From: a virus | IMG/VR virus record: IMGVR_UViG_3300008448_011290 | DNA length: 64,000 bases | Reading direction: 5' to 3' (one strand) | Made by a program: the position numbers and the translations under genes | Notes under the pieces: model-generated | Database searches by the model: none | The model's input: only the letters and a program-made list of their open reading frames with translations | What the model was told of the DNA's origin: nothing | In this document: in pieces, positions 37,272 through 58,647 of the stretch | Layout of the letters: every line of letters starts with the position of its first letter | Numbering within the stretch: the first letter of the stretch is position 1

Positions 37272-37300
37272 TTGATTTTTTCCATAATTAGCTGTACAAT
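37272..37300 (+). promoter_or_regulatory. sigma70-type promoter TTGATT-N17-TACAAT, 6 nt before ATG 37307, with TAATTA nested in the spacer
   Basis: TTGATT 37272-37277, TAATTA 37285-37290, TACAAT 37295-37300; heads the modification cluster. Confidence 0.6.
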
Positions 37301-37306
37301 TGAGCT

Positions 37307-37621
37307 ATGGATATACGATCCCTCAAACAGCAATCTGATCACAGTTTTAATCTAGCAGTGGCTAAAAAGAATGCTCTAGAACGAGCAAAAAGTCGACAAC
37401 TGTTTGCTTATAAAGATCATCTATTTCGTGCTGATGCTGATACCATAAATCTTGTGCATGCCTTGAAGCAGAACAATAGGAAGTTTTTTCTTCTAGATGC
37501 TAACGACAATCCTTGTGAAATTGCTAATCCAGAAGAATTCTTACAGTTGTTAATAGAACGTAATCAAGAGACTCTTAATCAATATCATCAATTGCAAGAG
37601 CAATTAAAGAGCAAGGAGTAA
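37307..37621 (+). CDS. Hypothetical protein (possibly fibre-assembly related)
   Basis: 104-aa ORF, first gene behind the promoter; no recognisable catalytic motif. Confidence 0.55.
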   Translation: MDIRSLKQQSDHSFNLAVAKKNALERAKSRQLFAYKDHLFRADADTINLVHALKQNNRKFFLLDANDNPCEIANPEEFLQLLIERNQETLNQYHQLQEQLKSKE

Positions 37622-37622
37622 T

Positions 37623-38381
37623 ATGTCCACAGGAGCATTAATCTATTGTTTTAACTCTGAACAAGTACAGTATCATAGAACGACTAATTTTTGTATCGAA
37701 TTAATAAAAAAGAATCTATCGTTACCTGTGACTGTAGTCACTAACAATGCAACCAAAGAACATATTAAAGGTACAGATTCGTTAGTCGTAATAGATAATC
37801 AAAAGAACAATCAACGTTTTTATAAAGATAGAACGATACCTTGGTACAATCTTGAGAGATCTCATTCTTATGATTATTCACCCTATGATACTACTGCACT
37901 GTTAGATTCTGATTATTTTGTTTATACTAAGAACTTATTAGAAACAATCAACAGCAGTTACGAATTTCTTCTGCATGACCGAGTGCATGATTTAACTGGT
38001 CGAGGCAGTTTTGAATACAATAATAGAAGTATGATACCGTTGGTATGGGCCACAGTAACCGTTTTTAAAAAAACACAGAGAGTAAAAAAAATATTTGATA
38101 TGATCAAACACATACAACAAAATTATAGGTATTTCTGTAAACTATACAGAATAGATTTTGCTAATTTTAGGAATGATTATGCTTTTGCCATGGCATTAAA
38201 TCAGCTGGATGGATTCAATCAACAGTATTTCATGCCCACTGCTATGAGCATGATACCCACAGATACCAAAGTTTTAAAAATAGATCACACAGGCATTATA
38301 TTTCAATACGATAAATTTGTTAATCTAGTCACAGAACAGGATGTGCATGTGTTAGACAAGGAGATTCCGATTAATGTCTAA
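37623..38381 (+). CDS. Nucleotide-diphospho-sugar transferase-like (GT-A) protein
   Basis: G(A)LIYCFN...SPYDTTALLDSDY...WATVTVF...RNDYAFAMA. Confidence 0.65.
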   Translation: MSTGALIYCFNSEQVQYHRTTNFCIELIKKNLSLPVTVVTNNATKEHIKGTDSLVVIDNQKNNQRFYKDRTIPWYNLERSHSYDYSPYDTTALLDSDYFVYTKNLLETINSSYEFLLHDRVHDLTGRGSFEYNNRSMIPLVWATVTVFKKTQRVKKIFDMIKHIQQNYRYFCKLYRIDFANFRNDYAFAMALNQLDGFNQQYFMPTAMSMIPTDTKVLKIDHTGIIFQYDKFVNLVTEQDVHVLDKEIPINV

Positions 38382-39171
38382 AGGTTTTCTATGGTTTGCA
38401 CAGAACAATGCTACCACTGATTATGCTAAAATTAGTGTGGAGTTAGCTAAATCTATTAAACTCATTAATAGAGATAATAATATTTGTGTAATAGTAGATA
38501 AGAATACTGCTTTGAACAGTGAATATATAGATCAAGTTGTTGTATTAAAAGATGATGCCAGTGCAAACGCTGAAACTAAATTTGCCAATGAGCACAAGGC
38601 TTTTCGATTATCTCCATTTACTCACACTATAAAACTTGAAGCAGACATGTTGTTCACTGCCAATACTGACTGGTGGTGGCATCATCTATGTCAGCACGAT
38701 CTTGTGTTTGCAGTCAATTGTAGAAATTATAAAGATAAGATAGTTAAAAATACACCTTATAGAAGACTATTTCAATTGAATCATCTGCCTGATATCTACA
38801 ACGGATTAACATATTTTAGACGCAGTCAACGAGCTATGAAATTTTTTGATATTTGCCAATCAATCACAGAAAATTGGACTGCTGTACGAGAACAATTATT
38901 AATAAATTGTCATGATCTATACCCCACCACCGACGTAGTCTATGCTCTAGCATATAGAATAATGGATCCTTTTAATCACAATTTAATAGATTATCCATGG
39001 TTTAAATTTATACATGGAAAATCTTCTGTGAATGAGATAACTGTAGCTGCTGATCAGTACAACTATCTTTATCCCGTAAAGTTAGCAGACAGAATCTATC
39101 TTGGAGGTAAGAGATTGGACAGAATTTGGCATTATCATGACAAAAAACTAATGGACACTATAAATGGATGA
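38374..39171 (+). CDS. Nucleotide-diphospho-sugar transferase-like (GT-A) protein, paralog of 37623
   Basis: GFLWFAQN...SPFTHTIKLEADM...IYNGLTYF...TDVVYALA...FIHGK. Confidence 0.65.
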   Translation: MSKGFLWFAQNNATTDYAKISVELAKSIKLINRDNNICVIVDKNTALNSEYIDQVVVLKDDASANAETKFANEHKAFRLSPFTHTIKLEADMLFTANTDWWWHHLCQHDLVFAVNCRNYKDKIVKNTPYRRLFQLNHLPDIYNGLTYFRRSQRAMKFFDICQSITENWTAVREQLLINCHDLYPTTDVVYALAYRIMDPFNHNLIDYPWFKFIHGKSSVNEITVAADQYNYLYPVKLADRIYLGGKRLDRIWHYHDKKLMDTING

Positions 39172-39502
39172 AATATTCAAAGCATTAAATAGTTTTAAAT
39201 CAACATCTGTTAATGATAACTTTTATATCGAAGTTAGAAACAAAGAAATAATAACTCTATGCAGAGAACCAAACGATAATACTGTTAAAATTTCACAACA
39301 GGACTATAAATTTCTATTAGACAAAGGTATAGAACGTTTCGTATACGATCATGGAATCGTAAAAAAACCTAAAAAGAAAACACAAAGAGTTTTTGAAACC
39401 TTAAAAAAAGATATGCAAGGATACAATTTACAAGACAATGATCCTTATTGGCCTATAGAGATAGTGAAAGGAGGTTATACATGGCAAACACCGTGCGAGT
39501 AA
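39164..39502 (+). CDS. Hypothetical protein
   Basis: 112-aa ORF overlapping both neighbours. Confidence 0.55.
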   Translation: MDEIFKALNSFKSTSVNDNFYIEVRNKEIITLCREPNDNTVKISQQDYKFLLDKGIERFVYDHGIVKKPKKKTQRVFETLKKDMQGYNLQDNDPYWPIEIVKGGYTWQTPCE

Positions 39503-40377
39503 CTGATTTAGATTTTGTTTTTATTAGCTACAGAGAGCCCAATGCTGATGAAAATTATGCTGATCTATTGAACATAGTGCCATGGGCAAAAAGAATACAC
39601 GGAGTTAAGGGATTTGATAATGCTCATAAGGCTGCTGCTGAACTAGCAGAGACAGATTTCTTTATCAGTATTGATGGAGACAATAGAATAGATCCTTTAT
39701 TCCTATTACAAACTCTAGACTGGACTAAAACTAATCCTGCTGCTGTGCATCGTTGGAGAGCAAGAAACATTATTAATGGATTAGTGTATGGCAATGGAGG
39801 TATTGTGGGATGGCCTCGCAAAACCTGTTTGAACATGCGTACTCACGAAAATGCTGTGGATGAACGAGCCAAAATAGATTTTTGTTGGACTGTGCCACAT
39901 GAGAATTTGCACAATGTATATTCTACAACACACATTAACCATACTCCTGAACAGGCTTTTATTGCAGGATGGAGAGAAGGTGTAAAAATGAGTCTCAACA
40001 ATGGACAGAAAGTGGATCCCGGCCTGTTCATGCAAACAATTCCTCAAAACAATCTAAGAAATTTAGTCACATGGATGAGTGTGGGTGCTGATGTGGACAA
40101 CGGACGATGGGCTATGTTGGGTGCTAGATGTGGCTGTTATATGGCCACAATAGATTCAAACTATGATGTTACACTGGTTAGAGATTTAGAATTCATGAGC
40201 GACAAATTTTCCCGCATGATGTATGATATAGAATCTGATATTATAGCTCATGGCAACTCTTTACGACAGAGATTGGGATTGCCTGTGGCAGATTTTGATG
40301 CAGAACAGAGTCGATTCTATAAGTTTTGTCAACAACCTTACAGAAACAAAGGAGTACAAGATCGTGAAAGCAAGTGA
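39481..40377 (+). CDS. Glycosyltransferase-like protein (GT-A/GT2-like)
   Basis: DFVFISYREPNADENY...HGVKGFDNAHKAAA...FISIDGDN...YGNGG; start at ATG 39481 after GGAGG. Confidence 0.65.
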   Translation: MANTVRVTDLDFVFISYREPNADENYADLLNIVPWAKRIHGVKGFDNAHKAAAELAETDFFISIDGDNRIDPLFLLQTLDWTKTNPAAVHRWRARNIINGLVYGNGGIVGWPRKTCLNMRTHENAVDERAKIDFCWTVPHENLHNVYSTTHINHTPEQAFIAGWREGVKMSLNNGQKVDPGLFMQTIPQNNLRNLVTWMSVGADVDNGRWAMLGARCGCYMATIDSNYDVTLVRDLEFMSDKFSRMMYDIESDIIAHGNSLRQRLGLPVADFDAEQSRFYKFCQQPYRNKGVQDRESK

Positions 40378-41746
40378 TTACAAACACAATGCTGATCAAG
40401 CACAGAAAAAATTAAACACAGTTAGCCCAAGTTTCTGTCTTGCGAAATGGAATCAGGTATCATTGCACCTGCCTACAGGATTAACCAACTCTTGTTATCA
40501 TCCTCCACTGCATGAAATAGATGCAGGAGCATTGGCTCAAAATCCTGCTGCTCTGCACAACACTGCACAGAAGATTGTAGAGAGACGACAGATGATTGCG
40601 GGAGAACGACCCGAAGGATGCTCCTATTGTTGGAAACTCGAAGACGCTGGAGAGATGAGTGATCGCCACTATCGTAGTGGAGAACCATGGGCCATGCAGG
40701 ATTTTGACAAGATAACGCAAGATCCTCTCAATGTTCAGCACACACCTTCGTATGTGGAAGTGAATTTTAACAATGCTTGCAATCTAAAATGCAGCTATTG
40801 TTCACCACAATTCAGCACCACGTGGGGCAAAGAGATAGATATCTATGGAGAATATCCTACCCATCCAGCACACAATGCACCCGAACACTTCATGGGTCGT
40901 AGAAAACCCATACCCAACAGAGAAAACAATCCCTATGTGGAAGCATTTTGGCGATGGTGGCCCGAATTGTATAAGAATTTAAAACATTTTCGCATGACTG
41001 GTGGAGAACCCATGATGGATAACAACACTTATCGAGTGTTTGATTATATTATATCACATCCAAAACCTGATCTACATTTGAATGTTACATCTAATATGTG
41101 TCCACCCACAGACAAATTAAAGAATCAGTATTTTGATGCTGTCAAAAGAATGTGTTTAGATGAGAGCATCGAGCATTTCATGCAATTTGTATCTGTGGAT
41201 GCTCATGGACCTCGTGCTGAATATATCCGACATGGTATGAATTACAATCGTTTAATGGATAATGTGGATGAATTTTTAACTCGCATACCTGGACGCAACA
41301 GTGTGAGCTTTATTATAACCTATAATAATCTCAGTGTAACATCACTGGATCGATTATTAGTGGATATTCGTCAATTGAGACAGAAACATTCTTCTACCTA
41401 TCAGCGAGTGTGGTTCGACATACCTCTACTGCGTCAGCCAGCATGGCAGCAGATCACTCTGCTTCCGGAAAGTTATCAAAGTATACACGAGAAAAACATA
41501 GAGTATATGAAACAGTACCAAGAGAACACTGATTCAGACAAGAAAGATTATGCTGTGTTTAAGGACTTTGAGATTCAAAAAATGCTGCGCAATCTTGCTT
41601 ACTGGCGCAAACACACAGAAACAAATAATACGCAAAAAAAGAATTTTTACGCATTTTTTGCAGAACATGATCGCAGGAGAGGTACGAGCTTTGAAAGAAC
41701 ATTTCCTGAGATGCAGGAATTTTGGCAGGAGTGTAAGAGTTTATGA
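40364..41746 (+). CDS. Radical SAM protein with N-terminal twitch-like domain
   Basis: FCLAKW...SCYHPP...CSYCW, then NACNLKCSYC and TGGEP; GTG start at 40364 with AAGGAG upstream. Confidence 0.85.
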   Translation: MKASDYKHNADQAQKKLNTVSPSFCLAKWNQVSLHLPTGLTNSCYHPPLHEIDAGALAQNPAALHNTAQKIVERRQMIAGERPEGCSYCWKLEDAGEMSDRHYRSGEPWAMQDFDKITQDPLNVQHTPSYVEVNFNNACNLKCSYCSPQFSTTWGKEIDIYGEYPTHPAHNAPEHFMGRRKPIPNRENNPYVEAFWRWWPELYKNLKHFRMTGGEPMMDNNTYRVFDYIISHPKPDLHLNVTSNMCPPTDKLKNQYFDAVKRMCLDESIEHFMQFVSVDAHGPRAEYIRHGMNYNRLMDNVDEFLTRIPGRNSVSFIITYNNLSVTSLDRLLVDIRQLRQKHSSTYQRVWFDIPLLRQPAWQQITLLPESYQSIHEKNIEYMKQYQENTDSDKKDYAVFKDFEIQKMLRNLAYWRKHTETNNTQKKNFYAFFAEHDRRRGTSFERTFPEMQEFWQECKSL

Positions 41747-42393
41747 AAACAATAGGATTCTTTGGAGATAGTTTCTGTGCCGGCAGAGAACCCGAGAGCT
41801 GGTGTGTATTATTAGCCAATCAATTAAATGCTCGAATAGTGCATTGGGGAGAACCTGGACGAAGTATATGGACTACTTTCTTTAAATTTAATCAATTGAA
41901 CAAAACAAATAGATTACCTGATATCTGTGTTTTGTGTTATACAGAACCTTATAGATTGTATCATCCATCTTTAATACTTTCTGCTAATACTGCTCCTATG
42001 AAAGGAGTAGATCCTAAAATTTATGAAGCTCTAGAACAATATTTTATACATTTACACAGCTATGACAAAGATGAATTGTGTTATGAATATGCTCTAAAAT
42101 GGTTTGATCATGATGTTCTATCTAAAATAAAGAATAAAACAATTGTACAAACGTGGAGTTTTCGACCATTTGAACAATCAAAAAAAGATGCTGGTATAAA
42201 ATTAAACAGTGGAATATTCGTTGATGAGAGCATGTATGCTCTATCATTGAATCATGAATTAAATTTTTTACCTGGCAGAGGTGCTACCATGCCATGGGGC
42301 AAAGGCATAATCAACCATATGAGTGCTGAACAAAATAAACTTTGGGCTGATAAAGTTTATACAGCAATTAAAAACAATGAATCCAGATCTTGA
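41743..42393 (+). CDS. SGNH/GDSL-like protein
   Basis: FFGDSF block I, G..G.S block II, C-terminal NHMS. Confidence 0.55.
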   Translation: MKTIGFFGDSFCAGREPESWCVLLANQLNARIVHWGEPGRSIWTTFFKFNQLNKTNRLPDICVLCYTEPYRLYHPSLILSANTAPMKGVDPKIYEALEQYFIHLHSYDKDELCYEYALKWFDHDVLSKIKNKTIVQTWSFRPFEQSKKDAGIKLNSGIFVDESMYALSLNHELNFLPGRGATMPWGKGIINHMSAEQNKLWADKVYTAIKNNESRS

Positions 42394-43726
42394 ATATCGT
42401 AAACAAATATTAGATTCTCTATCTCCCAGTTTCTGTGGAGCCAAATGGTACAATGCTACCATATGGTTGGGATCTGGCATGACTACCAGTTGTCATCATC
42501 CACCTGCACATCGAGTGGATGTAGAAAAATTAAAAGATAATCCTCGATTATTGCACAACACTCCTCAAAAGAAACAGGATCGTGCTAAAATGATTGCTGG
42601 TGAAAGACCTGCAGGTTGTGAATATTGCTGGAAAATAGAAGACATGGGCAGAGATGCTGTGAGTGATAGAGTATATAAAAGTAAAATTTATCCAGATGCA
42701 GAATTAGAAAGAGCATTCAATACTCCTATCACAGAAGACATTAATCTCAAAACTCTAGAGATTGCTTTTGATAGAACATGTAATTTTGCTTGTTCTTATT
42801 GTAATCCTGCATTTAGTACCACATGGGTAAGAGATATAAAACAAAATGGTCCTTATAAAGATTTAATATCAGATGGTAGAAATCATTTTACTCATCCTCA
42901 TGATGGTGCACAATTGTACAAAGACACAGAAGAAAATCCCTATGTGGAAGCATTCTTTCGATGGTGGGAGACAGATTTACACAAAACTCTAGATGAATTA
43001 AGAATCACAGGCGGAGAGCCCATGATGAGTCCTTCTTTGTGGAGATTATTAGATTGGTTTGAAACACAGGGAGAACGAATTAATCCCAATATGAGATTGG
43101 CCATTAACTCTAACTTAGTACCCAAGGCAGAATTATTTGAAAAATTTGTAGATAAATGTAAAAAAATAAAAAATTTACATATCTATACTTCCAATGAATC
43201 AACGTATGCTCATTCAGATTATATTAGAGATGGAATGAATTATACTAATTGGTATGTAAATTTTGTTAATGTAATTAATCAAATAAGACCTGCAGGACTG
43301 CACAACATGTGTACAGTAAATGCTCTGTGTCTAGAATCATTACCTCAGTTTTTAGATGTTATTATAAGAAATAAATTAGATGCTAAAAGAGTTTATGGAG
43401 TAGATGTAAACTTTACTTTAAACATACTGAGATTTCCTAGTTTTCAATCGCCTTTAGTATTGCCAGATTATCTAAGAACAGAATTCAAAGACAATTTATC
43501 ACAATGGCTAGACACAAATATAGCTCATTGCGAGTTTATGGAAGTATCTCATGTGCAAAGATTAATAGATTATCTAGATGTGGTTAAAACACCTCATTCT
43601 GAAGCATTTGATTTACCAAGACTAAGGTCTGATTTCAAAAATTTCTATAAACAATACGATGTAAGAAGAGGCAAAGATTTTGCAAAAACATTCACAAGAA
43701 TAGGAGAGTGGTACCGTGGCTTATGA
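42377..43726 (+). CDS. Radical SAM protein with N-terminal twitch-like domain
   Basis: FCGAKW...SCHHPP...CEYCW, then TCNFACSYC and TGGEP; likely start MNPDLEY at 42377. Confidence 0.85.
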   Translation: MNPDLEYRKQILDSLSPSFCGAKWYNATIWLGSGMTTSCHHPPAHRVDVEKLKDNPRLLHNTPQKKQDRAKMIAGERPAGCEYCWKIEDMGRDAVSDRVYKSKIYPDAELERAFNTPITEDINLKTLEIAFDRTCNFACSYCNPAFSTTWVRDIKQNGPYKDLISDGRNHFTHPHDGAQLYKDTEENPYVEAFFRWWETDLHKTLDELRITGGEPMMSPSLWRLLDWFETQGERINPNMRLAINSNLVPKAELFEKFVDKCKKIKNLHIYTSNESTYAHSDYIRDGMNYTNWYVNFVNVINQIRPAGLHNMCTVNALCLESLPQFLDVIIRNKLDAKRVYGVDVNFTLNILRFPSFQSPLVLPDYLRTEFKDNLSQWLDTNIAHCEFMEVSHVQRLIDYLDVVKTPHSEAFDLPRLRSDFKNFYKQYDVRRGKDFAKTFTRIGEWYRGL

Positions 43727-45008
43727 GTATGGGGCTAAAGAGCCTGAAAAATTAAAAATTAAGGACATGACTGAACGTCAGAAAGAGTTATTGTTAGATA
43801 GTAAAACTTTCTGTATGCTGCCTTGGATGCATATACATTCGTATCCGGATGGTCGAGCCTATCCTTGTTGTTTTGCATTAGATTCTTATCCTATTGGTGA
43901 TTTGAATAAGAGTTCTATGGAAGAAGTATTCAACGGAGAAGCAATGAAAGAGATGAGAACGAACATGTTAGAGAATAAAACTTCTAAGCAATGTGCAAAA
44001 TGTTATGATCAAGAAAAAGCCGGTTTCTTCAGTATGAGATTGAGTTCAAATAAACATTTTGGACACAATATAGGATTAACAGATGCTACACAGCCAGACG
44101 GTACTGCTGATTTTATAATCAAATATTGGGATATAAGATTTAGTAATCTTTGTAATTTTGCTTGTAGAAGTTGTGGCACGTGGTTTAGTTCTAATTGGTA
44201 CGAGGATCATAAAAAACTCACAGGAGCTCCTCCCCCACATGCAAAAATTATGCGAGTAGGCAGATCAGAGAATGATATATGGGAACAGTTATTGCCACAA
44301 ATAGATCATATGGAACAGATTTATTTTGCTGGAGGAGAACCCCTGATCATGGAAGAACATTATAGAATTTTAAAAGAATTAGATCGTAGAAAGTTATATC
44401 ACGTGAGATTAACTTACAATACAAATTTTAGTAAATTAACTTTTAAAGATATGGATGTCTTAGAATTATGGAACAAATTTCACACAGTATCAATAGGTGC
44501 TAGTTTAGATGCTGAAGGGGAAAGAGCCGAAGTTATAAGAAAAGGCACAGTATGGAAGGATATTGTAGAAAATAGAAAAAGAATGATAGAAGTTTGTCCA
44601 AAGGTAGATTTCTATATCAGTGCTACAGTTAGCATGATCAATGCATTACATATTCCAGACTTTCATAGAAGTTGGGTTGAACAAGGTCTTATTAAACCTC
44701 AAGATTTTAATTTTAATCTATTACAAATGCCAAAATGGCAAAGAATGGATAATTTACCCAAGGAATATAAAGAACGTATTGAAAAGAAATATCTTGCACA
44801 TATAGAATGGTTAAAAGACAAAGATCATTTAACTAGAGCAACCAAAGGTTTTGAGAGTGCATTAAAATGGATGAACATGACCGACAATACAAAAAATTTA
44901 CCTATGTTTTTTGAATTATCAAAAAAATATGATAATATCAGAGGAGAAAGTTTAGTAAAAACATTTCCAGAGCTGACAGAATTATTCGAAAAATATGAAA
45001 AAAATTAA
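43716..45008 (+). CDS. Radical SAM protein with N-terminal twitch-like domain
   Basis: FCMLPW...YPCC...CAKCY, then NLCNFACRSC, AGGEP and YNTN. Confidence 0.9.
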   Translation: MAYEYGAKEPEKLKIKDMTERQKELLLDSKTFCMLPWMHIHSYPDGRAYPCCFALDSYPIGDLNKSSMEEVFNGEAMKEMRTNMLENKTSKQCAKCYDQEKAGFFSMRLSSNKHFGHNIGLTDATQPDGTADFIIKYWDIRFSNLCNFACRSCGTWFSSNWYEDHKKLTGAPPPHAKIMRVGRSENDIWEQLLPQIDHMEQIYFAGGEPLIMEEHYRILKELDRRKLYHVRLTYNTNFSKLTFKDMDVLELWNKFHTVSIGASLDAEGERAEVIRKGTVWKDIVENRKRMIEVCPKVDFYISATVSMINALHIPDFHRSWVEQGLIKPQDFNFNLLQMPKWQRMDNLPKEYKERIEKKYLAHIEWLKDKDHLTRATKGFESALKWMNMTDNTKNLPMFFELSKKYDNIRGESLVKTFPELTELFEKYEKN

Positions 45009-47453: not shown

Positions 47454-48255
47454 AATTTTCTTATCAGGTGGTTGCAGTTTTACATATGGACACGAGTTGT
47501 CTGATGATAAAAACGGAAAAATACCTTCTCAAAAGACTTGGGCAGCACTATTGGCTAAAAATATTCCAGCAGATTATAAAACAGTAGCATGGGCAGGATC
47601 AGGTAATGCAGGCATAGCAAGACGAGTATTTGAATATATTTCACAAAACAAAGAACAAGATATATTTGTTTCTATTATGTGGACTTTTGTTTCACGCTAT
47701 GATTGGGCAATGCCTAGGAATGCAGTATTAGAAAAAACAAGATGGGCTACAATTACTCCCTGGGACACATCAGATAATCAAGCAGAAGTACAAAAAACAT
47801 TGGCTGCTAGTGAACCACAATTGGAAATATGGAAAACAAGAAGAGAAACTTTAAGAAATACAGGAGTAGGACCATTTGCTGATGCTCTTTATAAACATGC
47901 AGCTAATCAATATCATGAAGCTTATCTCAGTTGGAAGAGTATCGTTTGGTTACAAAATATACTGGAAAAAAAGAAAATAAAATATATGTTTACTCTAGCT
48001 GATAATACTCTATTTTACAATGAGCTGGAACCATTGAATAGAGTTGATCCTTTATTAAATGCGTTGTATAATGAAATAGACTTCAGTCGATGGTTTGTAT
48101 TTGGAGAAAGACATATGGGATTCAATCAATGGGCAGTATTGAATGATTATCCACGTGGTACCACACATCCTTTGGATGAAGCACATAGAGATTCAGCAAA
48201 ATTAATGAAAGATAAATTTTTTGAAATTTATACTAAAAAACAGGAGGCACTATGA
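47446..48255 (+). CDS. SGNH-like protein
   Basis: GGCSFTYG, AWAGSGN, C-terminal THPLDEAH. Confidence 0.55.
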   Translation: MSKIFLSGGCSFTYGHELSDDKNGKIPSQKTWAALLAKNIPADYKTVAWAGSGNAGIARRVFEYISQNKEQDIFVSIMWTFVSRYDWAMPRNAVLEKTRWATITPWDTSDNQAEVQKTLAASEPQLEIWKTRRETLRNTGVGPFADALYKHAANQYHEAYLSWKSIVWLQNILEKKKIKYMFTLADNTLFYNELEPLNRVDPLLNALYNEIDFSRWFVFGERHMGFNQWAVLNDYPRGTTHPLDEAHRDSAKLMKDKFFEIYTKKQEAL

Positions 48256-48356
48256 TACAATGGATAAAAAATTTAATAAACAAAATTCGATTAGAGCGAC
48301 AATATCGTAAGAGATTGAAAGAGTTAAAAAAGAAAGATCCTTTCATCTACAAATAA
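48252..48356 (+). CDS. Small basic protein (34 aa), absent from the ORF track
   Basis: GGAGG Shine-Dalgarno and ATGA overlap; MIQWIKNLINKIRLERQYRKRLKELKKKDPFIYK*; ends 1 nt before the carbamoyltransferase ATG. Confidence 0.7.
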   Translation: MIQWIKNLINKIRLERQYRKRLKELKKKDPFIYK

Positions 48357-48357
48357 A

Positions 48358-49848
48358 ATGAGAATATTAGGAATTAATTGTCTAAATCACGATGCTGCTA
48401 TGGCTGTGGTTGAAGATGGAGAAATCCTATGGGCGGCACATGCAGAAAGATACAGCAAAGATAAGAATGATCACTATCTCAATTGGCAAATAGTAAATGA
48501 AGCTCGCGAATACGGACCATGGGACAAAGTGGTTTATTATGAAAGACCTCTGTTAAAGAAAACTCGACAAGCCCGTGCTGGTCAATGGTCAGAAGTTTTT
48601 TCTCGAACAAATATACCACAAAATTATTTAGATGCGTTTGGAATACGAATAGATGAATATGTGAGTCATCACGAATCTCATGCTGCTGCAGGATTTTTTA
48701 CATCTCCGTTCTATGATGCAATGGTACTAACAGTGGATGCCATAGGAGAATGGGATACCACTTCGATATGGCAAGCTCAAGGCAAACGATTAGATCTATG
48801 CTACAAAATCAAATATCCTCATTCATTGGGTTTACTCTATTCAGCGTTTACACAGAGAGTAGGACTCAAACCTGCTGAAGAAGAATATATTCTAATGGGC
48901 ATGGCAGCATATGGAGAACCTAGATATGTGGCAGAAATCTATAGAGACCTTGTGGATAGAGATGGAGATTTTGCATTAAAGAAAAATTTACATAAAGGAT
49001 TGGGCAATTGGTTACCAGAAGCTGATCCTATGGACCTAGCAGCCAGTATACAAAAAGTTACGGAACGAGAATTAGAAAAATTATGGCGTAAGACTCGACA
49101 GTACATACCTGCAAGTCAAATAGCAGTTAGTCGATACGGCAACAAAAGAAATCTAGTGTATGGTGGTGGTGTGGCTCTTAATTGTGTGGCCAACAGTAAA
49201 TTGGCCAATCTAGGATTATTTGACAACATATGGATCATGCCTAACCCAGGTGATGCCGGCAGTTCCATTGGTTGTATTGCAGCCGCTGAACGAAAACATA
49301 TCCATTGGCGTCATCCTTTCCTAGGACACAACATAGAAGGGGAATATCCTGTGGATCACTTAATAAAAGAATTAGAAAAAAATCGTATGGTAGGAGTAGC
49401 GAATGGCAGAGCTGAATTTGGACCACGAGCACTTGGTAATAGATCATTGCTGGCAGATCCACGTGGCAATGATATCAAAGATTTGGTAAATCGTATCAAA
49501 CAAAGACAGGAATTTCGACCATTTGCACCCGCTATACTAGAGGAGGATTTACATGAATATTTTGAGGTGCCTAAGTGCGTTGTAAACACCCCTTATATGC
49601 AATTTATAGGCATTTGTAAGCATGGTAAAGACTTTCCTGCCATTGTGCATCATGACGGTACAAGTCGTGTGCAAACAGTGAATAAAACGCAGAATCCAGG
49701 CTTTTACCAACTGTTAAAAACATGGAAGGAAAAAACCGGATGTCCAATGCTGTTAAACACATCACTGAATATCAAAGGTGAACCCATAGTGAATGATATC
49801 AAGGATGCGGAACGCTTCGAAACCAAGTATAATGTAAGAGTATGTTAA
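48358..49848 (+). CDS. O-carbamoyltransferase (NodU/CmcH/TobZ family)
   Basis: ILGIN..NHDAA, HHESHAA, VDAIGE, GGVALNC, GRAEFGPRALGNRSLLADP, FRPFAP, LLNTSLN. Confidence 0.95.
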   Translation: MRILGINCLNHDAAMAVVEDGEILWAAHAERYSKDKNDHYLNWQIVNEAREYGPWDKVVYYERPLLKKTRQARAGQWSEVFSRTNIPQNYLDAFGIRIDEYVSHHESHAAAGFFTSPFYDAMVLTVDAIGEWDTTSIWQAQGKRLDLCYKIKYPHSLGLLYSAFTQRVGLKPAEEEYILMGMAAYGEPRYVAEIYRDLVDRDGDFALKKNLHKGLGNWLPEADPMDLAASIQKVTERELEKLWRKTRQYIPASQIAVSRYGNKRNLVYGGGVALNCVANSKLANLGLFDNIWIMPNPGDAGSSIGCIAAAERKHIHWRHPFLGHNIEGEYPVDHLIKELEKNRMVGVANGRAEFGPRALGNRSLLADPRGNDIKDLVNRIKQRQEFRPFAPAILEEDLHEYFEVPKCVVNTPYMQFIGICKHGKDFPAIVHHDGTSRVQTVNKTQNPGFYQLLKTWKEKTGCPMLLNTSLNIKGEPIVNDIKDAERFETKYNVRVC

Positions 49849-50786
49849 AAATATTGGTAACAGGTGGTGAAGGTTTTATAGGCGGTTGGATTGTGGAAAA
49901 ATTGTCTCAGATGGGACATAGAGTTACTACTCTAGATTCTGGAGAAACCTATGATGTGATTGAAAGGCAAGATCTAGATAGATTATGCCGTTGGAGACAG
50001 AGGAATTGGAAACGAGTTACAAAAATATCAGGCAATGTGACCATGCCTTTGGATCGTGTGTGGTTGAAAAAACAAGATATTGTGATACATCTAGCATCTT
50101 ATCCCAGAGCTAGAATAGTGCATGATCATCCAGAAATGGGAGTAGAGAACATAGTGGTAGGTACCACAGGAATGTTACAAGATTGTGTGGAGTATGGTGT
50201 AAAAAGATTTGTTTATGTTTCTTCCAGTATGATATATGGAGATTTTGCAGATGGAGCAGATGAAAAAACTGCACCAAATCCTATCAATATCTACGGAGAA
50301 GCCAAGTTAACAGGAGAAAGATTAACGCAACAATTTAATAGATCATTTGGATTGGAATATGTGATAGCAAGGCCCAGCGGAGTATACGGAGCAGGTGATA
50401 TTCCAGATAGAGTATTAAGTAAATTTTTTGATGCTGCTATGAATAATCAAAATATTTCAGTGCATGGTGCTGATAATCGAGTGGACTTTACCTACGTAGA
50501 AGATGCAGCAGACGGTATTATTCGTTGTGCTCTAGAAAAACAAGCAGCCAATAAAATTTTTAATATTACAGCAGGCAGTGCAAACAGTTTAGGAGAAGCA
50601 GCCAAAAAAATTATTCAATTAACAGGTAGTAAGAGTCAGATTAAAGACACAGGAAAAAATAAATTATATCCCAATAGAGGCACGTTAGATGTATCTCAAG
50701 CACAACAATTATTAGGATATAGGCCTCAACACAGTTTTGATCAAGGTATTGCAAAGTATTATGAGTGGTTACAAAATAAAATTTAA
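49842..50786 (+). CDS. NAD-dependent NDP-sugar epimerase/dehydratase (extended SDR)
   Basis: TGGEGFIG, SSSMIYG, YGEAK. Confidence 0.9.
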   Translation: MLKILVTGGEGFIGGWIVEKLSQMGHRVTTLDSGETYDVIERQDLDRLCRWRQRNWKRVTKISGNVTMPLDRVWLKKQDIVIHLASYPRARIVHDHPEMGVENIVVGTTGMLQDCVEYGVKRFVYVSSSMIYGDFADGADEKTAPNPINIYGEAKLTGERLTQQFNRSFGLEYVIARPSGVYGAGDIPDRVLSKFFDAAMNNQNISVHGADNRVDFTYVEDAADGIIRCALEKQAANKIFNITAGSANSLGEAAKKIIQLTGSKSQIKDTGKNKLYPNRGTLDVSQAQQLLGYRPQHSFDQGIAKYYEWLQNKI

Positions 50787-51855
50787 CGGATTAGATAGAA
50801 TCTATTCTCACTATAAAACAGAGCTGGATGCAGCAGCCAAAGAAGTGTGGCGCACAGGCAATGTATTAATAGGTAGAAAAAAAGAAGATTCAGAATTGGG
50901 TATATTTGAAGATTTAATAGCCAACTATGTGGGCAGAGAATATGCTGTGGGAGTACAGAGCTGTACAGATGCTCTTTATTTTGCTCTAAGAGCTCATGAC
51001 ATAGGATCAGGTAAAACAGTAATATGTCCAGCATTATCTTTCCTGAGCACAGCAACAGCTATTAAACGTACAGGTGCTGCAGTTGAGTTTGTTGATGTTG
51101 GAGAAGATGGTCAGATTGGTGAGCTTGGAGATATCAAAGCCGATGCTCTAGTGTATGTAAATCTATATGGTAATCTAGCCGACTATGATAGATTGAAACA
51201 GCATTGTCGTAAAAATAAAATATTATTGATAGAAGATGCTGCTCAGTCTTTAGGAGCATATTATAAAAAATCACAATCTGGCAATCTAGGAGATATCAGT
51301 GTGCTAAGTTTCTCTCCTGTAAAAAATCTTCCAGCATTCGGCAACGGTGGCATGATATTAACAGATGATAAAAAAATAGCAGAAAAATGTCTAGCTCTGA
51401 GATATCATGGAGTAAATGGAGAAGATGTAGAGCATGGGTATAATTCTGTAATGTCAGAAAGCCAAGCTGCACAATTGAATGTATTAATGATGGATTTTAA
51501 TACTTTGCAAGACAGAAGACAGCAAGTTAGAGATCAATATAATCAGCATTTAAAAAAATTATTAAATGTTAAAACTATCGATACACAAACAAACACAATA
51601 GGTTCTAATCACAAATTAGTAATATTATGCAAAGATAGAGATAGTTTAAAAGAATTTCTCTCTAACAAAGGCATAGAAACACAAATACACTATAATGAAA
51701 TATTGCCTCACACAAAATACTTCAATAATAAAAATTCTTTCCCTAATGCTGAAAGAATTTCAAAAGAATGTTTGAGTCTTCCAATCTATCCACATTTAAA
51801 AAAGAATGAGATCAAATATATTTGTGATATGATAGGAGAATTTTATGGCTTTTGA
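50761..51855 (+). CDS. DegT/DnrJ/EryC1/StrS PLP-dependent sugar aminotransferase
   Basis: SCTDAL, EDAAQSLG, SFSPVKNLPAFGNGG, LSLPIYP; likely start ATG 50761. Confidence 0.92.
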   Translation: MSGYKIKFNGLDRIYSHYKTELDAAAKEVWRTGNVLIGRKKEDSELGIFEDLIANYVGREYAVGVQSCTDALYFALRAHDIGSGKTVICPALSFLSTATAIKRTGAAVEFVDVGEDGQIGELGDIKADALVYVNLYGNLADYDRLKQHCRKNKILLIEDAAQSLGAYYKKSQSGNLGDISVLSFSPVKNLPAFGNGGMILTDDKKIAEKCLALRYHGVNGEDVEHGYNSVMSESQAAQLNVLMMDFNTLQDRRQQVRDQYNQHLKKLLNVKTIDTQTNTIGSNHKLVILCKDRDSLKEFLSNKGIETQIHYNEILPHTKYFNNKNSFPNAERISKECLSLPIYPHLKKNEIKYICDMIGEFYGF

Positions 51856-53173
51856 TTGTATCTGTATAGATTTTAAAAATAATAAAAGTGAACAAAATAT
51901 AAAGAATATTAAAAAAGTATTTCCTTATGCGAGAGTTATACCATTCCTACAGAGCTATTACGAAATAATACAATCTCAAATCTCATCTTGCAGCACAAGA
52001 TATCTATGGTTGCTTTCTAGTTTAATTGATTATCGAGATTTTGATTTTGGATTTATACCTGAACAATTCCAAGAAAAACAAATTCATGTTTGGTCAATAG
52101 AAGGACAGAAAGAAGGTGATACATTCTTAATACCAAAAAAATTTACAGAACAACAAATAGAGTATCTACGAGATTATAAAGATATTAACTATCATACAGC
52201 AAATAACATACACTATGATTATGATATTGCAGAATCTCCTTACGATTTAAGTAATAACATTGATTGTTTAGAAAGAGTATCAGGACCTGCTGGCAAATAT
52301 GTTAAACATTTTGAAAAGAAAAATGATAAAAAAATATATCCTTCTTATTGGGAAGATCTAAAAATTTATATTGATGGTACTACATTCTATGTACCAAATG
52401 CAGCCGTAGATAAGATTCATACACAAATATATGACTATCATCTATTGTATCGATTGCAAAATAATCTAGAAAAAGATTGTTTTGATATTGCCTTTATATC
52501 TAATAGAGAACCATTTGAAGAAGACAATTACAATCTATTAAAAGAGCATCTACAAAAGAATAATTTAAAAAATAGATTATATTGGGTGCGAGGAGTAGAT
52601 GGAAGAACAGCAGCATATAAACAAGCAGCCGAACAATCCAGCCAAGAATATTTTTATGCTGTATTTGCAAAAAGCCAAGTGGACAAAAATTTTATGTTTA
52701 ATTACACTGTAGATAGAGCAAAAAATAAAAGACATTATATATTTCACGCAAGATTATGCGAACTTGGATTAGAATATGGTACATTTAATATCAATCTTTT
52801 TTCTCGATCTTTATGTCTCGATACTCCAGATACTCCAGGCCTGGATTTTACTCTTTATAGCAAACATGAAGTTGTACCTATAGTGGCAAACACAGCATTA
52901 TTGTGCCCAGACAACTATACAGCATGGAAAAATGCTTTTAGAGAAGTTAGCAAATTAATATTATGGAATAAGCAACGTCCTACAGTGGAAACAGGATATA
53001 GAATTGAAAAATGGTTGTCTACAGATAATACATGGCTAAAACGAGGAGCACATGATGCTAAAAAATTTGTGGAAGATTCTAATTTCGATATTGTAAAGAT
53101 AGAAGAGACTTATTCTTGGAAGTTCACTAAAGAAACTTTTTCTAAATTATATCCTGCAGAGCAGAGCTATTAA
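51845..53173 (+). CDS. Two-domain glycosyltransferase-like protein (C-terminal half paralogous to 39481; DxD absent)
   Basis: FDIAFISNREP..E.NY...VRGVDGRTAAYKQAA...YAVFAKS...AWKNAFREV. Confidence 0.55.
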   Translation: MAFDCICIDFKNNKSEQNIKNIKKVFPYARVIPFLQSYYEIIQSQISSCSTRYLWLLSSLIDYRDFDFGFIPEQFQEKQIHVWSIEGQKEGDTFLIPKKFTEQQIEYLRDYKDINYHTANNIHYDYDIAESPYDLSNNIDCLERVSGPAGKYVKHFEKKNDKKIYPSYWEDLKIYIDGTTFYVPNAAVDKIHTQIYDYHLLYRLQNNLEKDCFDIAFISNREPFEEDNYNLLKEHLQKNNLKNRLYWVRGVDGRTAAYKQAAEQSSQEYFYAVFAKSQVDKNFMFNYTVDRAKNKRHYIFHARLCELGLEYGTFNINLFSRSLCLDTPDTPGLDFTLYSKHEVVPIVANTALLCPDNYTAWKNAFREVSKLILWNKQRPTVETGYRIEKWLSTDNTWLKRGAHDAKKFVEDSNFDIVKIEETYSWKFTKETFSKLYPAEQSY

Positions 53174-54141
53174 AAATTAAGATTATCGCGGTAAAATTTT
53201 TGTTTTAGGAACCAATCAATATATTCTGGTATGCCTTGCTCAATATCAATCATTGGTTGAAATCTTAAAAGATTAACTGCTTTGTCGCTGTTTAATGTAT
53301 CTCTATTAGGATAAAATTCATCATGTGGTTTAGTATTAATTTTAACACTGCCTATTTTTGATTGGATTATTTCTGCAGCTTCCATTATTCGACGACCGCG
53401 TCCTCTAGTGCAATTAAAAATTTCATCCACTACATCTGATAGAGTAGCTCTAACAAAATACTCTGCCACATCTTCTACGTGAGAAAAATCTAATTTATTG
53501 TCCGGTCCTTGCACAGTCATTTCTTTTTTAGTTAATGCGTTTTTAACTAACTGACTTATTACTCTCACAATCATATCAGGACAGCCATATAAAGCCGAAG
53601 GTCTCATTATTACATAGTTTAATCCGTGTAATCTTCTCCAAACTTTACACATGAGTTCTCCTTGATACTTGTAAGAACCATATAGAGTATTAGGACTTGG
53701 AGTGACAGTTTCATCTGGTATCTGTTCTTTAAAATCTCCATAAACCATGCTGCTGGAAGAAAATACAATTTTTTTTACTTGATGCTTAACACATAAATCT
53801 AAAATATTTGCTGTGGCTGTAATCATATTGCCTGTAGCATCATCAATATTACTTTGCACCATTTTAGCATTGGGATAAGTGCCTAAATGTATTACTCTTT
53901 CTGGTTGAAATTCTGCGAAAGTTTTTTCCATGAATTCTTTGTCTTCTATTCTTCCTACAAATGTACGATCGTTGGCTGCAATAGTTTTTCTTAAATCTAA
54001 TATTGGAAAGTATTCCCAATCAGGAAAAGCATTATATTGATGATAACAATCTACCACACCAACCATGTGTCCTTCTTTTTTTAATCGTTGGCTAACTCTA
54101 CTGCCAATAAAACCATGTCCTCCAAGTATTAGAATGTTCAT
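53170..54141 (-). CDS. NAD-dependent NDP-sugar epimerase/dehydratase, paralog of 49842
   Basis: LGGHGFIG, SSSSMVYG, YGSYK, YPNRDTL. Confidence 0.9.
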   Translation of the reverse strand: MNILILGGHGFIGSRVSQRLKKEGHMVGVVDCYHQYNAFPDWEYFPILDLRKTIAANDRTFVGRIEDKEFMEKTFAEFQPERVIHLGTYPNAKMVQSNIDDATGNMITATANILDLCVKHQVKKIVFSSSSMVYGDFKEQIPDETVTPSPNTLYGSYKYQGELMCKVWRRLHGLNYVIMRPSALYGCPDMIVRVISQLVKNALTKKEMTVQGPDNKLDFSHVEDVAEYFVRATLSDVVDEIFNCTRGRGRRIMEAAEIIQSKIGSVKINTKPHDEFYPNRDTLNSDKAVNLLRFQPMIDIEQGIPEYIDWFLKQKFYRDNLNF

Positions 54142-54785
54142 GCTATCAGTTGATATTGTATAGAGAATGTTTCTGCTATTTTATTCTCTCCTAAAAAAGA
54201 TCCTCTATATCGATTGTAGTTTATAATTTGTTCTATATTCTGTTGCGAAAAATAAGACTTATAACATCTTAGAGCTTGTTGTTTTTGTTCTAAATGTTCT
54301 GTTATATCCACATATAGATTTGTTTTAAAATTACTGTAGTGCAGATTATAAGGAGTTTGATCCATACACCAAAATTCTTTAAAAAATTTTCGAGACAAAC
54401 TCTGTGCTAATTCATAACATATTCTATGTTCTTGATGAGAATCTTCTCGCCAATGAGATATTAATACATCATATCCTTTGGATATTCCTTCCACTGCTGT
54501 TATTAAATTATTGTTTAATGTTAAATTAGGACGACCATTACTGTGTAGAGGAGTGTTATAAAATTCAACAGTATGTTTTAAAACTTTTTGACTATTTTCT
54601 AATTCGGATTTTACAACGGTTTCATTCCTGTTTTTGTTAATTTCTACAGAAGGTCTTATCATGATACAGTTGGTTACTGTACCACTATTTTGTATGATTT
54701 TAGATATTAAACCGCCGCAGGCAGATTCTGCATCGTCTGGGTGAGCTGTGAGTATAAAGAATTTTCTTTTGTAAAATTCATTCAT
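54138..54785 (-). CDS. PIG-L/LmbE family N-deacetylase
   Basis: AHPDDAE and DSHQEH metal motifs; VDIT...K..AL.CY.S. Confidence 0.88.
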   Translation of the reverse strand: MNEFYKRKFFILTAHPDDAESACGGLISKIIQNSGTVTNCIMIRPSVEINKNRNETVVKSELENSQKVLKHTVEFYNTPLHSNGRPNLTLNNNLITAVEGISKGYDVLISHWREDSHQEHRICYELAQSLSRKFFKEFWCMDQTPYNLHYSNFKTNLYVDITEHLEQKQQALRCYKSYFSQQNIEQIINYNRYRGSFLGENKIAETFSIQYQLIA

Positions 54786-55126
54786 TTAAAAGTTTTATCC
54801 AACAACTTGTTAGTCTTTGATTCCATGTCTGCTTTTAATTTAGGAATATCAAATTTAAGATCCACATGTTTAACGTTGGCATAATTGCTATTAATATATC
54901 TTTTTAGAGTTTCAGCAATTTTAGATTCAGTTTTTTTTGATTGTAGCTCTTTTTCTACGTCATAATGTATGGTGACATTATTTTTTAATGTAATGTCACA
55001 CCATTTAACATAGCCTATAGGCATGTTGCTGTATTTGATGCCTTCTAGAACTTCTGGCCACTCTTTAACAAATTCTGATGTTAATTGAACCCAAGTTTGT
55101 TTAGTTCTTGGCAGTTTCCTTGCCAT
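54782..55126 (-). CDS. Hypothetical protein
   Basis: 114-aa ORF in the overlapping minus-strand operon. Confidence 0.55.
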   Translation of the reverse strand: MARKLPRTKQTWVQLTSEFVKEWPEVLEGIKYSNMPIGYVKWCDITLKNNVTIHYDVEKELQSKKTESKIAETLKRYINSNYANVKHVDLKFDIPKLKADMESKTNKLLDKTFK

Positions 55127-56007: not shown

Positions 56008-56271
56008 CTATGAGTTCTGAGCCATACCACTCAATACAAATAGTGTAAGATCGCTGGGCTCTTCAAAAGCAATTGTGGTAAAGATATCCACTCTGTCACC
56101 TGTGTGTTTAATATCATTTACCAATGCAAATCGTCCTGCACAGTTGGAATAAATCCAACGAGCCAATTTTTGACTTTGGTATTCGTGTTGATTTGGTAAA
56201 GAAATAGATTTAAAATGTGGAGGTATTCGATCTAGTTTTCTTGGATGAAAGTTTTTAGCATTAATCCTCAT
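56008..56271 (-). CDS. Hypothetical protein
   Basis: 87-aa ORF overlapping the stop of the VWA gene. Confidence 0.55.
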   Translation of the reverse strand: MRINAKNFHPRKLDRIPPHFKSISLPNQHEYQSQKLARWIYSNCAGRFALVNDIKHTGDRVDIFTTIAFEEPSDLTLFVLSGMAQNS

Positions 56272-58614: not shown

Positions 58615-58647
58615 TTTTAGACCTCTCTAAAATTTGTTTATAGTATC

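Follow-up and report, generated by a model that had tools for sequence, protein, structure and literature searches.

The 64,000-nucleotide stretch of viral DNA analyzed here (the window; bases 6558-70557 of the 70.8-kb IMG/VR virus record IMGVR_UViG_3300008448_011290) carries a compact run of tailoring-enzyme genes at 37623-54785, with a baseplate and tail-fiber module upstream. Within this run, between the gene of the SGNH-fold protein o269 and a carbamoyltransferase gene, lies an open reading frame (ORF) at 48252-48356 on the plus strand, which encodes a peptide of 34 amino acids ending in DPFIYK. We tentatively propose, at somewhat short of an even chance, that the locus is a peptide-centered glycoconjugate pathway resembling those of peptides synthesized ribosomally and modified post-translationally (RiPPs), with this peptide as the candidate scaffold or precursor. 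A preliminary description of the same DNA had recognized the phage-borne tailoring cluster and its place behind the fiber genes, and both stand. It also named the enzyme families correctly, and it overlooked the invariant peptide. CheckV estimates the completeness of the source record at only 20%, so the record has to be regarded as a fragment of a jumbo-phage genome.

The peptide gene is closely joined to both of its neighbors. A strong Shine–Dalgarno sequence (AGGAGG) is found 4 nt upstream of its ATG, its ATGA overlaps the stop codon of o269, and its end runs as TAAAATG into the start of the carbamoyltransferase gene. For comparison with relatives, IMG/VR was scanned with the radical S-adenosylmethionine (SAM) enzyme rS3 of the cluster as query, which returned 80 loci of 48-82% identity, and all proteins of the window were then mapped onto them. 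Presence counts refer to the 71 loci with a complete upstream flank or to the 59 loci that are complete downstream. The peptide is located directly 3' of the SGNH gene in every locus that spans the position (73 of 82 sequences, the Ralstonia jumbo phage RsoM2USA included). The C-terminal DPFIYK keeps each of its residues in 52 distinct nucleotide versions, which between them use all the synonymous codons and each of the three stops. Because the residues stay fixed while codons and stops vary, we conclude that the peptide is translated and very strongly selected. It is also the best-conserved element of the locus, above any enzyme. Between the window and RsoM2USA the DPFIYK end is identical, compared to 45% identity for the carbamoyltransferase, 50% for the radical SAM enzyme rS2 and 23% for the SGNH protein.

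Three loci (four sequences) contain a second, divergent peptide directly after the SGNH gene, ending in DPYEYK, DPYLYR or DPYVYK (L033, 14573-15353; L038/L039, 14525-15324; L055, 15167-16442). This second peptide is followed by a class I methyltransferase-like ORF in L033 and L038/L039 or by an unrelated 397-aa ORF in L055, and then by the canonical DPFIYK peptide. With these endings, the motif can be written as D-P-[FY]-x-Y-[KR]-COOH. A degenerate DNA scan of ~186,000 species genomes yielded 14 further copies. All of them are true peptides in contigs of aquatic metagenome-assembled genomes (MAGs), and a carbamoyltransferase gene adjoins each copy wherever the flank allows. The taxonomic labels of these contigs (L084-L097) are very mixed and include Haliscomenobacter, Legionellales, Rickettsiales, Polynucleobacter, Neomarinimicrobiota and Pacearchaeota. 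The presence of the cassette in MAG bins of many phyla and of one archaeon most likely reflects mis-binned jumbo-phage DNA, some of the contigs being 150-335 kb long. Four of the MAGs were searched and gave 5-18 matches each to radical SAM enzymes of the N-terminal-twitch type found in the window. Literature searches for DPFIYK and for DUF6071, the family that o269 resembles, returned no paper.

The only cultured phage found to carry the core cassette is RsoM2USA. Its cassette at 123-129 kb encodes, in this order, a carbamoyltransferase, a DUF6071 protein, the peptide, a DUF6071 protein, a radical SAM enzyme and a DUF6071 protein. It lies among DNA-metabolism genes, adjoined by DNA ligase and helicase genes, and ORF202 of this phage is the orthologue of rS2 (50% identical). 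ORF199 is its carbamoyltransferase, and its version of the peptide, 36 amino acids long, is encoded between ORF200 and ORF201. Since the cassette has no glycosyltransferase, we take peptide, radical SAM enzyme, SGNH protein and carbamoyltransferase as the conserved minimum. The pairing characteristic of RiPP pathways, a conserved precursor peptide encoded beside radical SAM enzymes with auxiliary clusters, is found in the full operon as well as in this minimal cassette. In a 335-kb phage-like contig, the genes of a Toprim primase and a DnaB-like helicase flank a version of the peptide that is extended at its N-terminus by a hydrophobic stretch and ends in the same DPFIYK. The neighbors of this peptide in L092 (1-5159), the most divergent case, are a membrane protein resembling PsiE, a methyltransferase-like protein and a polypeptide that corresponds to the Kae1-like N domain of the carbamoyltransferase only. 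Identical copies of this divergent peptide are present on two contigs of one MAG, PBPT01000082.1 (L092) and PBPT01000016.1 (L089). Cyanophage S-SSM5, pelagiphage HTVC008M and phage C48C1 have more distant carbamoyltransferases (28-36% identical), near which no such peptide lies. The persistent association is that of the peptide with the carbamoyltransferase, then with the SGNH protein and the radical SAM enzyme, and the glycosyltransferases and sugar genes are an elaboration of the aquatic lineages. By megablast the cluster has no nucleotide-level relative among cultured phages, and tblastn with rS3 against them found only RsoM2USA and two Vibrio phages, the latter at 22-24% identity. A tblastn search of cultured phages with the peptide itself returned no match, not even the copy of RsoM2USA, because the low-complexity filter blinds such a search.

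Five radical SAM enzymes are encoded on the plus strand upstream of o269, namely rS1 (40250-41746), rS2 (42323-43726), rS3 (43716-45008), rS4 (44995-46299) and rS5 (46281-47453). They match the NCBIfam model NF033640 (N_Twi_rSAM) over its full length at 322, 286, 419, 307 and 377 bits, respectively. The cut-off of the model is 170 bits, and the five twitch radical SAM enzymes of the preliminary description (286-419 bits) are thereby confirmed. In 14 control genomes no protein exceeds this cut-off. rS1 and rS2 are present in 71/71 loci, rS4 and rS5 in 59/59. An alignment of 15 sequences from the five paralogue groups and two clades shows invariant C33, C51, C93 and C96, followed by C146, C150 and C153 (CX3CX2C) and by GGEP. 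This order of the cysteine motifs places the auxiliary-cluster domain ahead of the radical SAM core, in agreement with Pfam SPASM matches at residues 11-97, ahead of Radical_SAM. The same N-terminal four-cysteine motif, CX3CX2C and GGEP are found in NF033640. NF033640 itself is a catalogue entry, so membership gives neither reaction nor substrate, and no literature naming the family was found; what is particular here is that five paralogues are fixed in one operon. The relatives of rS3 are abundant (7400 clusters at 90% identity with E ≤ 1e-10 among 8000 candidates scored), yet their family is without a known reaction. Searching the PDB with rS3 by phmmer returned no relative, only a marginal match to Tes at E 0.13.

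The carbamoyltransferase (48358-49848, plus strand; 57/59 loci) is of the NodU/CmcH/TobZ type, with a Kae1-like N domain and a YrdC-like C domain. Pfam Carbam_trans_N matches at 161.9 bits (E 3.5e-47) and Carbam_trans_C at 184.2 bits (E 2e-54), with cut-offs of 24 and 27. An assignment as NodU equivalog was rejected, with 154 bits against a cut-off of 1000. The complex prediction of carbamoyltransferase and peptide gave weak support, with a median ipSAE of 0.60 (0.64, 0.60, 0.48) against 0.00 for the best of three controls, a partner pLDDT of at least 61 and at least 69% of contacts shared between runs. The mark is reached in the calibration by 58 of 80 solved complexes, as well as by 2 of 110 mismatched pairs, and the range at or below 0.60 holds 7 solved complexes and both mismatches; we do not count this prediction as evidence.

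The SGNH-fold protein o269 (47446-48255, plus strand) is a DUF6071-like hydrolase or acyltransferase that is found in 51/59 loci, always with its gene directly 5' of the peptide gene. Its AlphaFold2 (AF2) model has a pLDDT of 91 and matches SGNH proteins with a Foldseek probability of 1.00. TesA is aligned over 166 residues with a VIA Z of 14.8, and a viral DUF6071 cluster is matched with an Atlas TM of 0.86. Ser11, Gly51, Asn54 and His247 are invariant in 18 sequences, and in our reading of the alignment they would represent the serine of SGNH block I, the glycine of block II, the asparagine of block III and the histidine of block V. Profile searches of the PDB with the alignments of o269 and of the glycosyltransferase-like protein o309 returned only noise, and sequence models had given neither a name, so the folds of both proteins are predicted ones. 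The preliminary description had listed two SGNH-like proteins. This holds for o269 by its fold and invariant residues; the second, o216 (41743-42393, plus strand), is an accessory protein of 14/71 loci whose SGNH likeness consists of a GDS motif at residues 8-10 (FFGDSFCAG), with an hhalign probability of 6% against the o269 profile.

The glycosyltransferase-like genes form two separate families. An attempt to place o309 and o265 in one family was rejected by an hhalign probability of 1%. The first family is formed by o252 (37623-38381), with an invariant D95-x-D97, and o265 (38374-39171), with an invariant E89-x-D91, which lie on the plus strand, are each present in 69/71 loci and are paralogues with an hhalign probability of 98.6% between their profiles. 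Searching the PDB with their joint profile recovered 17 glycogenin-1 sequences, which belong to glycosyltransferase family 8 (GT8), and nothing else below E 0.1. The best match is weak (E 0.003), and the DxD motif aligns with the DAD of glycogenin. Among the named Atlas clusters, GT8 and Nucleotid_trans lie nearest, which is a language-model lead, and a Pfam scan of 45 members gave scattered chance matches and no model. We provisionally describe both proteins as GT8-like nucleotide-sugar transferases.

The second family is represented by o309 (39448-40377, plus strand; 70/71 loci), a predicted GT-A-fold transferase with an invariant D76-G77-D78 and a helical C-terminal domain. The AF2 model (pLDDT 87) shows a GT-A or nucleoside diphosphate (NDP)-sugar-transferase fold over residues 15-165. 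B4GALNT1 is matched with a VIA Z of 10.2 and a root-mean-square deviation of 3.0 over 143 residues, and Foldseek gives probabilities of 0.99-1.00 to GT2-type enzymes, the matches including SunS, WrtF, K4CP and RmlT at 0.99. Structural similarity extends to SunS and ThuS (Z 8.8-9.2), to WrtF and to the capsid glycosyltransferase of PBCV-1. Nucleotidyltransferases of the same fold score nearly as high, and transferase chemistry for o309 is suggested by the model. Further downstream, o442 (51845-53173, plus strand; 43/59 loci) is a two-domain protein whose C-terminal half (residues 210-382) is a paralogue of o309 (hhalign 96.5%) that has lost the DxD motif. Of the four GT-A-like genes that had been counted before, the fold is retained for o309, o252 and o265 are better described as GT8-like on the weak profile match, and o442 is a degenerate paralogue of o309.

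The operon has a recurring layout. In 80 IMG/VR contigs the order is fibD, f341, o104, o252, o265, (o112), o309, rS1, (o216), rS2, rS3, rS4, rS5, o269, carbamoyltransferase, and since 80 contigs keep this order the arrangement is not a matter of chance. The conserved core consists of the glycosyltransferase-like proteins, the five radical SAM enzymes, the SGNH protein, the peptide and the carbamoyltransferase. The place beside the fiber genes, which the preliminary description had proposed to check by synteny, is indeed kept in relatives, with f341 upstream in 65/71 loci, and it holds also in a clade with enzymes only ~50% identical. Immediately before the cluster, fibD (34605-36230, plus strand) encodes a tail fiber or spike with a fiber N-terminus and an intramolecular-chaperone-like C-terminal region; it matches PHROG fiber and virion families and, weakly, Peptidase_G2 IMC, and its orthologue lies 5' of the cluster in 58/71 loci. 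It serves as context only. The last structural-type gene is f341 (36232-37257, plus strand), whose Ser/Thr/Asn-rich product has no family match and is likewise context, though a candidate acceptor; orthologues directly upstream of the cluster have identities down to 23-30%. The small protein o104 (37307-37621, plus strand; 55/71 loci) has no Pfam, PHROG or NCBIfam match. Among its named Atlas feature matches 27 of 30 are DUF4376, with a top score of 0.90, which we treat as a lead, and o104 is probably a fiber-assembly helper rather than an enzyme. The range of 37307-54785 given earlier for the cluster therefore holds except for its start. The small protein o112 (39164-39502, plus strand) is poorly conserved and without a family match (32/71 loci at 25-64% identity).

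Around this core, SDR1, DegT, SDR2 and PIG-L form a variable periphery that is found in 19-53% of relatives. Directly after the carbamoyltransferase, SDR1 (49842-50786, plus strand; 28/59 loci) is an extended short-chain dehydrogenase/reductase (SDR) of the NDP-sugar 4,6-dehydratase/epimerase type (Pfam Epimerase, E 7.6e-42), with RmlB and LegB as best NCBIfam models, both below cut-off. DegT (50737-51855, plus strand; 31/59 loci) is a DegT/DnrJ/EryC1 sugar aminotransferase (Pfam PF01041, 268.5 bits against 19.8, E 1.3e-79). PseC is its best NCBIfam model, and no sugar is assigned to it, because the PseC, LegC and WecE equivalogs all remain below cut-off. On the minus strand, SDR2 (53170-54141; 16/59 loci), an extended SDR of the GalE/RmlB type (Pfam Epimerase, E 4.8e-40), is the last-but-one gene of a unit converging on the cluster, and the PIG-L de-N-acetylase (54138-54785, minus strand; 11/59 loci) reaches 43.9 bits for Pfam PF02585 against a cut-off of 28.2, with BshB1 as best NCBIfam model, below its cut-off. 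The carbamoyltransferase, the SDR epimerase, DegT and the opposite-strand pair had thus been identified correctly, all at the right positions and above the Pfam cut-offs. What is weakened is the amino-sugar glycan that had been taken as the product of the cluster, its genes being accessory with 28, 31, 16 and 11 of 59 loci. In relatives, cassettes inserted between peptide and carbamoyltransferase encode an FkbM methyltransferase, an APS-kinase-like P-loop protein, a cytidylyltransferase-like protein, an HhH-GPD-like protein, a thioredoxin-reductase-like flavoprotein or a GFO/IDH/MocA oxidoreductase. The operon belongs to a large group of uncultured aquatic jumbo phages, which are abundant in marine as well as freshwater settings.

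In the proposed pathway the peptide would be the scaffold on which the chemistry takes place. Its basic helical N-terminal part may act as a handle, while the invariant C-terminal D-P-F-I-Y-K would be the part that the radical SAM enzymes edit and to which the carbamoyltransferase adds a carbamoyl group. Radical SAM enzymes with SPASM or twitch domains commonly act on peptides, as PqqE, MftC and the sactisynthases do, and HypF, a carbamoyltransferase of the same two-domain kind, modifies HypE by carbamoylation of its C-terminal residue. Glycosylation of the peptide in the full operon would fall to the GT8-like and GT-A enzymes. The tyrosine hydroxyl would be the obvious acceptor by analogy with glycogenin, a GT8 enzyme that glucosylates a tyrosine, and with mycofactocin, which a radical SAM enzyme forms from a C-terminal Val-Tyr and to which a GT-A enzyme then attaches sugar. 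The sugars on the peptide might then be tailored by the lineage-specific enzymes, and the SGNH protein may remove or move an acyl group or release the product. Such a pathway would yield, inside the infected cell, a glycopeptide or a glycoconjugate derived from the peptide, with the virion, a host target or a cofactor pool as its possible end point. In its most specific form the proposal is that aquatic jumbo phages make an invariant peptide that is edited at its C-terminus by N-terminal-twitch radical SAM enzymes, carbamoylated by a HypF/TobZ-like enzyme and, where the operon is complete, O-glycosylated at tyrosine by glycogenin-like GT8 enzymes, to give a glycopeptide or a mycofactocin-like effector or cofactor with lineage-specific sugars. 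This detailed version we consider possible but rather doubtful.

Several known systems share parts of this arrangement. Mycofactocin and pyrroloquinoline quinone (PQQ) likewise start from a short ribosomal peptide with a tyrosine of critical function near the C-terminus, whose gene shares its operon with those of radical SAM enzymes that have auxiliary clusters and of transferases of the GT-A type, and the D-x-x-x-Y spacing of our peptide recalls the E-x-x-x-Y of PqqA. In contrast to these pathways, the twitch domain is N-terminal here, the tyrosine is penultimate (Y-K), carbamoyltransferase and SGNH protein belong to the core, five radical SAM paralogues are present and the operon is phage-borne; we found no recognition protein of the PqqD/MftB type, no peptidase of the MftE type and no oxidase of the MftD type. 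As in the glycocins, the operon encodes a peptide that is a candidate acceptor, and SunS and ThuS rank with the best matches of the o309 model in Foldseek and VIA, although the peptide here has no cysteine. The o252/o265 profile in turn matches glycogenin only, with the DxD motif aligned. These matches to glycocin enzymes and glycogenin are fold-level or weak (Z 8.8-9.2; E 0.003), and many unrelated GT-A and nucleotidyltransferase structures score alike. With HypF–HypE and TobZ/NodU the locus shares the Kae1-like plus YrdC-like architecture, and translational coupling links the carbamoyltransferase gene to that of a peptide whose C-terminus is invariant. HypE, however, ends in cysteine, the peptide here in Tyr-Lys. 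We regard the locus as related to known kinds, those of glycan-tailoring and RiPP-type clusters, with a large orphan enzyme family at its center.

A number of points speak against a peptide-centered pathway. Family scans of the cluster ORFs found no RiPP recognition element (PqqD), no leader peptidase and no exporter. Instead of being a substrate, the peptide could serve the carbamoyltransferase as a small subunit or as a regulator, and five radical SAM paralogues are many for a core of six residues. The 335-kb jumbo-phage-like contig has its peptide ~140 kb away from the N-twitch radical SAM genes. The GT8 assignment, weak as it is, leans on a profile match at E 0.003 on which Pfam is silent. 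Moreover, the full operon is invariably found beside fiber genes, and the variable sugar cassettes resemble surface-glycan diversification, which would suit an exposed product such as a decorated virion.

Such a decoration, in which the enzymes would glycosylate and tailor virion proteins (f341, fibD or the 4290-aa protein encoded upstream) and the peptide would only be an accessory subunit, is in our view a rather unlikely explanation that still deserves weight. It agrees with the operon following the fiber genes and the DUF4376-like helper in 65/71 relatives, across clades with enzymes ~50% identical, and with variable tailoring cassettes, which would suit an exposed structure on which diversifying selection acts. 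The enzymes all have a soluble appearance, and the family scans found no lipid-carrier machinery. A second enzyme island with a methyltransferase and a radical SAM enzyme lies among the fiber genes (26127-30518), and homologues of its radical SAM enzyme are found inside the cluster in distant relatives. Glycosylation of mycobacteriophage virions offers a precedent, as cited in PMC12619734. On the other hand, the core cassette of RsoM2USA is more than 100 kb away from the structural genes, which lie at ~240-285 kb (PMC8504454), and in L092 the peptide and the N domain of the carbamoyltransferase are found between primase and helicase. Since an unlinked cassette is the pattern that the preliminary description itself had named as weakening, its preference for virion proteins as the acceptor is weakened, and no result names these proteins. 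The position alone is a weak argument, as fiber-adjacent regions are known hypervariable cargo sites in T4-like phages according to PMC7029224. Virion decoration also leaves the invariant peptide unexplained. The only DPFI string in a fiber protein, that of f341, was considered as a related motif and is a chance occurrence, not conserved in the orthologues.

Remodeling of the host surface, in which glycosyltransferases and sugar enzymes would change the O-antigen or capsule while the cell is infected, for example so that competing phages are kept out, is improbable. The closest described case is the host recognition cluster of pelagimyophages and cyanomyophages, a hypervariable island in the fiber region of these aquatic T4-like phages with glycosyltransferases (GT8 being the most represented), sugar genes of the lipopolysaccharide type and radical SAM cassettes, for which PMC7029224 favors O-chain modification. 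In that paper the radical SAM cassettes are mentioned in passing, the N-twitch family and the conserved core order are not named, and a term search found no mention of a carbamoyltransferase. By its baseplate (33-37%) the phage here differs from those, standing closest to the jumbo phages Atu_ph07, Phosso and SCTP-2 and to those of the RaK2 type. A T4-like environmental genome with 12 radical SAM genes has been described in PMC5332604, which likewise does not name the N-twitch family or the core order. SDR, DegT and PIG-L proteins are typical of surface-glycan sugar pathways, but the matches in the cluster include neither an initiating phosphoglycosyltransferase nor a flippase, a polymerase, a ligase, a signal peptide or a membrane protein. 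The hallmarks of a lipid-linked surface-glycan locus (phosphoglycosyltransferase, Wzx/Wzy, ABC transporter) gave no match in the cluster or in the sampled variable cassettes of relatives. Neither the peptide nor the glycosyltransferase-free cassette of RsoM2USA is explained by surface remodeling.

The parallel to aminoglycoside biosynthesis drawn in the preliminary description holds for the broad families, twitch radical SAM, DegT, PIG-L and carbamoyltransferase being shared with BtrN, BtrR, BtrD and TobZ, and not for any closer likeness. The twitch domain is at the opposite end compared to BtrN, where it is C-terminal, and with no PDB relative by phmmer beyond the marginal Tes match a BtrN-type dehydrogenase identity was not obtained. 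DegT and SDR1 are most similar to models of the PseC, LegB and RmlB type, all below cut-off, and the accessory DegT, SDR and PIG-L proteins resemble surface-glycan sugar enzymes at least as well. A 2-deoxystreptamine aminoglycoside cluster was rejected, as none of the ORFs of 37307-55625 matched a 2-deoxy-scyllo-inosose synthase, exporter or resistance family. The absence of this synthase and of an exporter had been noted before, and flippase and polymerase families likewise gave no match in any cluster ORF. A free small-molecule product, that is a soluble, carbamoylated and radical-edited (amino)glycoside or nucleoside-like metabolite acting on the host, with the peptide as a subunit of the carbamoyltransferase, is therefore quite improbable: no scaffold enzyme (2-deoxy-scyllo-inosose synthase, cyclitol or nucleoside core), exporter or self-resistance gene was matched in the cluster, and the amino-sugar genes are accessory. 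It would be in line with the soluble appearance of the enzymes, with the tailoring of aminoglycosides by these families and with the small partner subunits that Kae1-family enzymes often have.

Hypermodification of phage DNA, with glycosyltransferases, radical SAM enzymes and carbamoyltransferase decorating a modified base, we judge to be very improbable. Phage DNA glycosylation and radical SAM steps in thymidine hypermodification are known; Pyle 2024 is cited in PMC12619734. The minimal cassettes of RsoM2USA and L092 do lie among ligase, helicase and primase genes, and some relatives carry P-loop kinase, nucleotidyltransferase-like and HhH-GPD-like proteins between peptide and carbamoyltransferase. 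In the cluster, however, no hydroxymethylase, TGT/DpdA or DNA-binding enzyme was matched, and an invariant peptide is not known to play a part in DNA-modification pathways.

If the peptide-centered pathway is correct, it would give NF033640 its first reaction and substrate and would represent a new class of phage natural product. The operon unites three chemistries that are seldom combined, namely radical SAM editing, glycosylation and carbamoylation, and a literature search found no paper characterizing it. The invariant ribosomal peptide provides a concrete and testable handle, as the cultured phage RsoM2USA carries the same peptide. Any of the outcomes would be a first, be it a phage glycopeptide, a decorated tail fiber or a new modification of DNA or envelope, together with a function for a large orphan enzyme family.

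The wider setting of the cluster is that of a structural module. Upstream of it are a baseplate hub, a wedge protein, the 4290-aa ORF and several fiber-like proteins with a common N-terminal module. The wedge protein matches phrog_10646 (E 2e-298), and its closest counterparts, 33-37% identical, are those of Atu_ph07, Phosso, SCTP-2 and jumbo phages of the RaK2/121Q type. The 4290-aa protein is encoded by a single ORF at 9827-22699, directly after the wedge gene. Promoter sequences give little guidance. The T4 late promoter octamer TATAAATA has no copy in the AT-rich 64-kb window, for which 100 dinucleotide shuffles give an expectation of 9.05 ± 2.99 copies, no shuffle being stated to reach zero. 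Its absence reflects either strong avoidance or a different late-promoter system. Sigma-70-like sites are not more common in the window than in shuffles. Because the octamer is absent and sigma-70-like sites occur at shuffle level, the timing of expression cannot be read from the sequence. A sigma-70-like site with 9/12 matches at 37272-37300, 5' of o104, is given no weight. A perfect sigma-70 consensus (TTGACA, 17 nt, TATAAT; 12/12) is found at 24624-24652, in a 74-nt gap upstream of the structural-module gene at 24673.

Two further groups of genes were noted in the window. The island at 26127-30518 on the minus strand has a low GC content (0.30, compared to 0.37-0.43 around it) and comprises five genes between fiber genes, among them a Methyltransf_24 protein (26825-28018) and a radical SAM enzyme without a twitch domain (29487-30518). 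Homologues of this radical SAM enzyme lie inside the cluster, between rS3 and rS5, in a distant clade (e.g. L061, L072-L077). Downstream of the cluster, at 56261-59825 on the minus strand, a DUF2201 metallopeptidase/VWA protein is paired with a MoxR-type AAA ATPase. This pair is followed by a seventh radical SAM enzyme (58707-59825), which shows weak tblastn matches to the N-twitch radical SAM enzyme of RsoM2USA.

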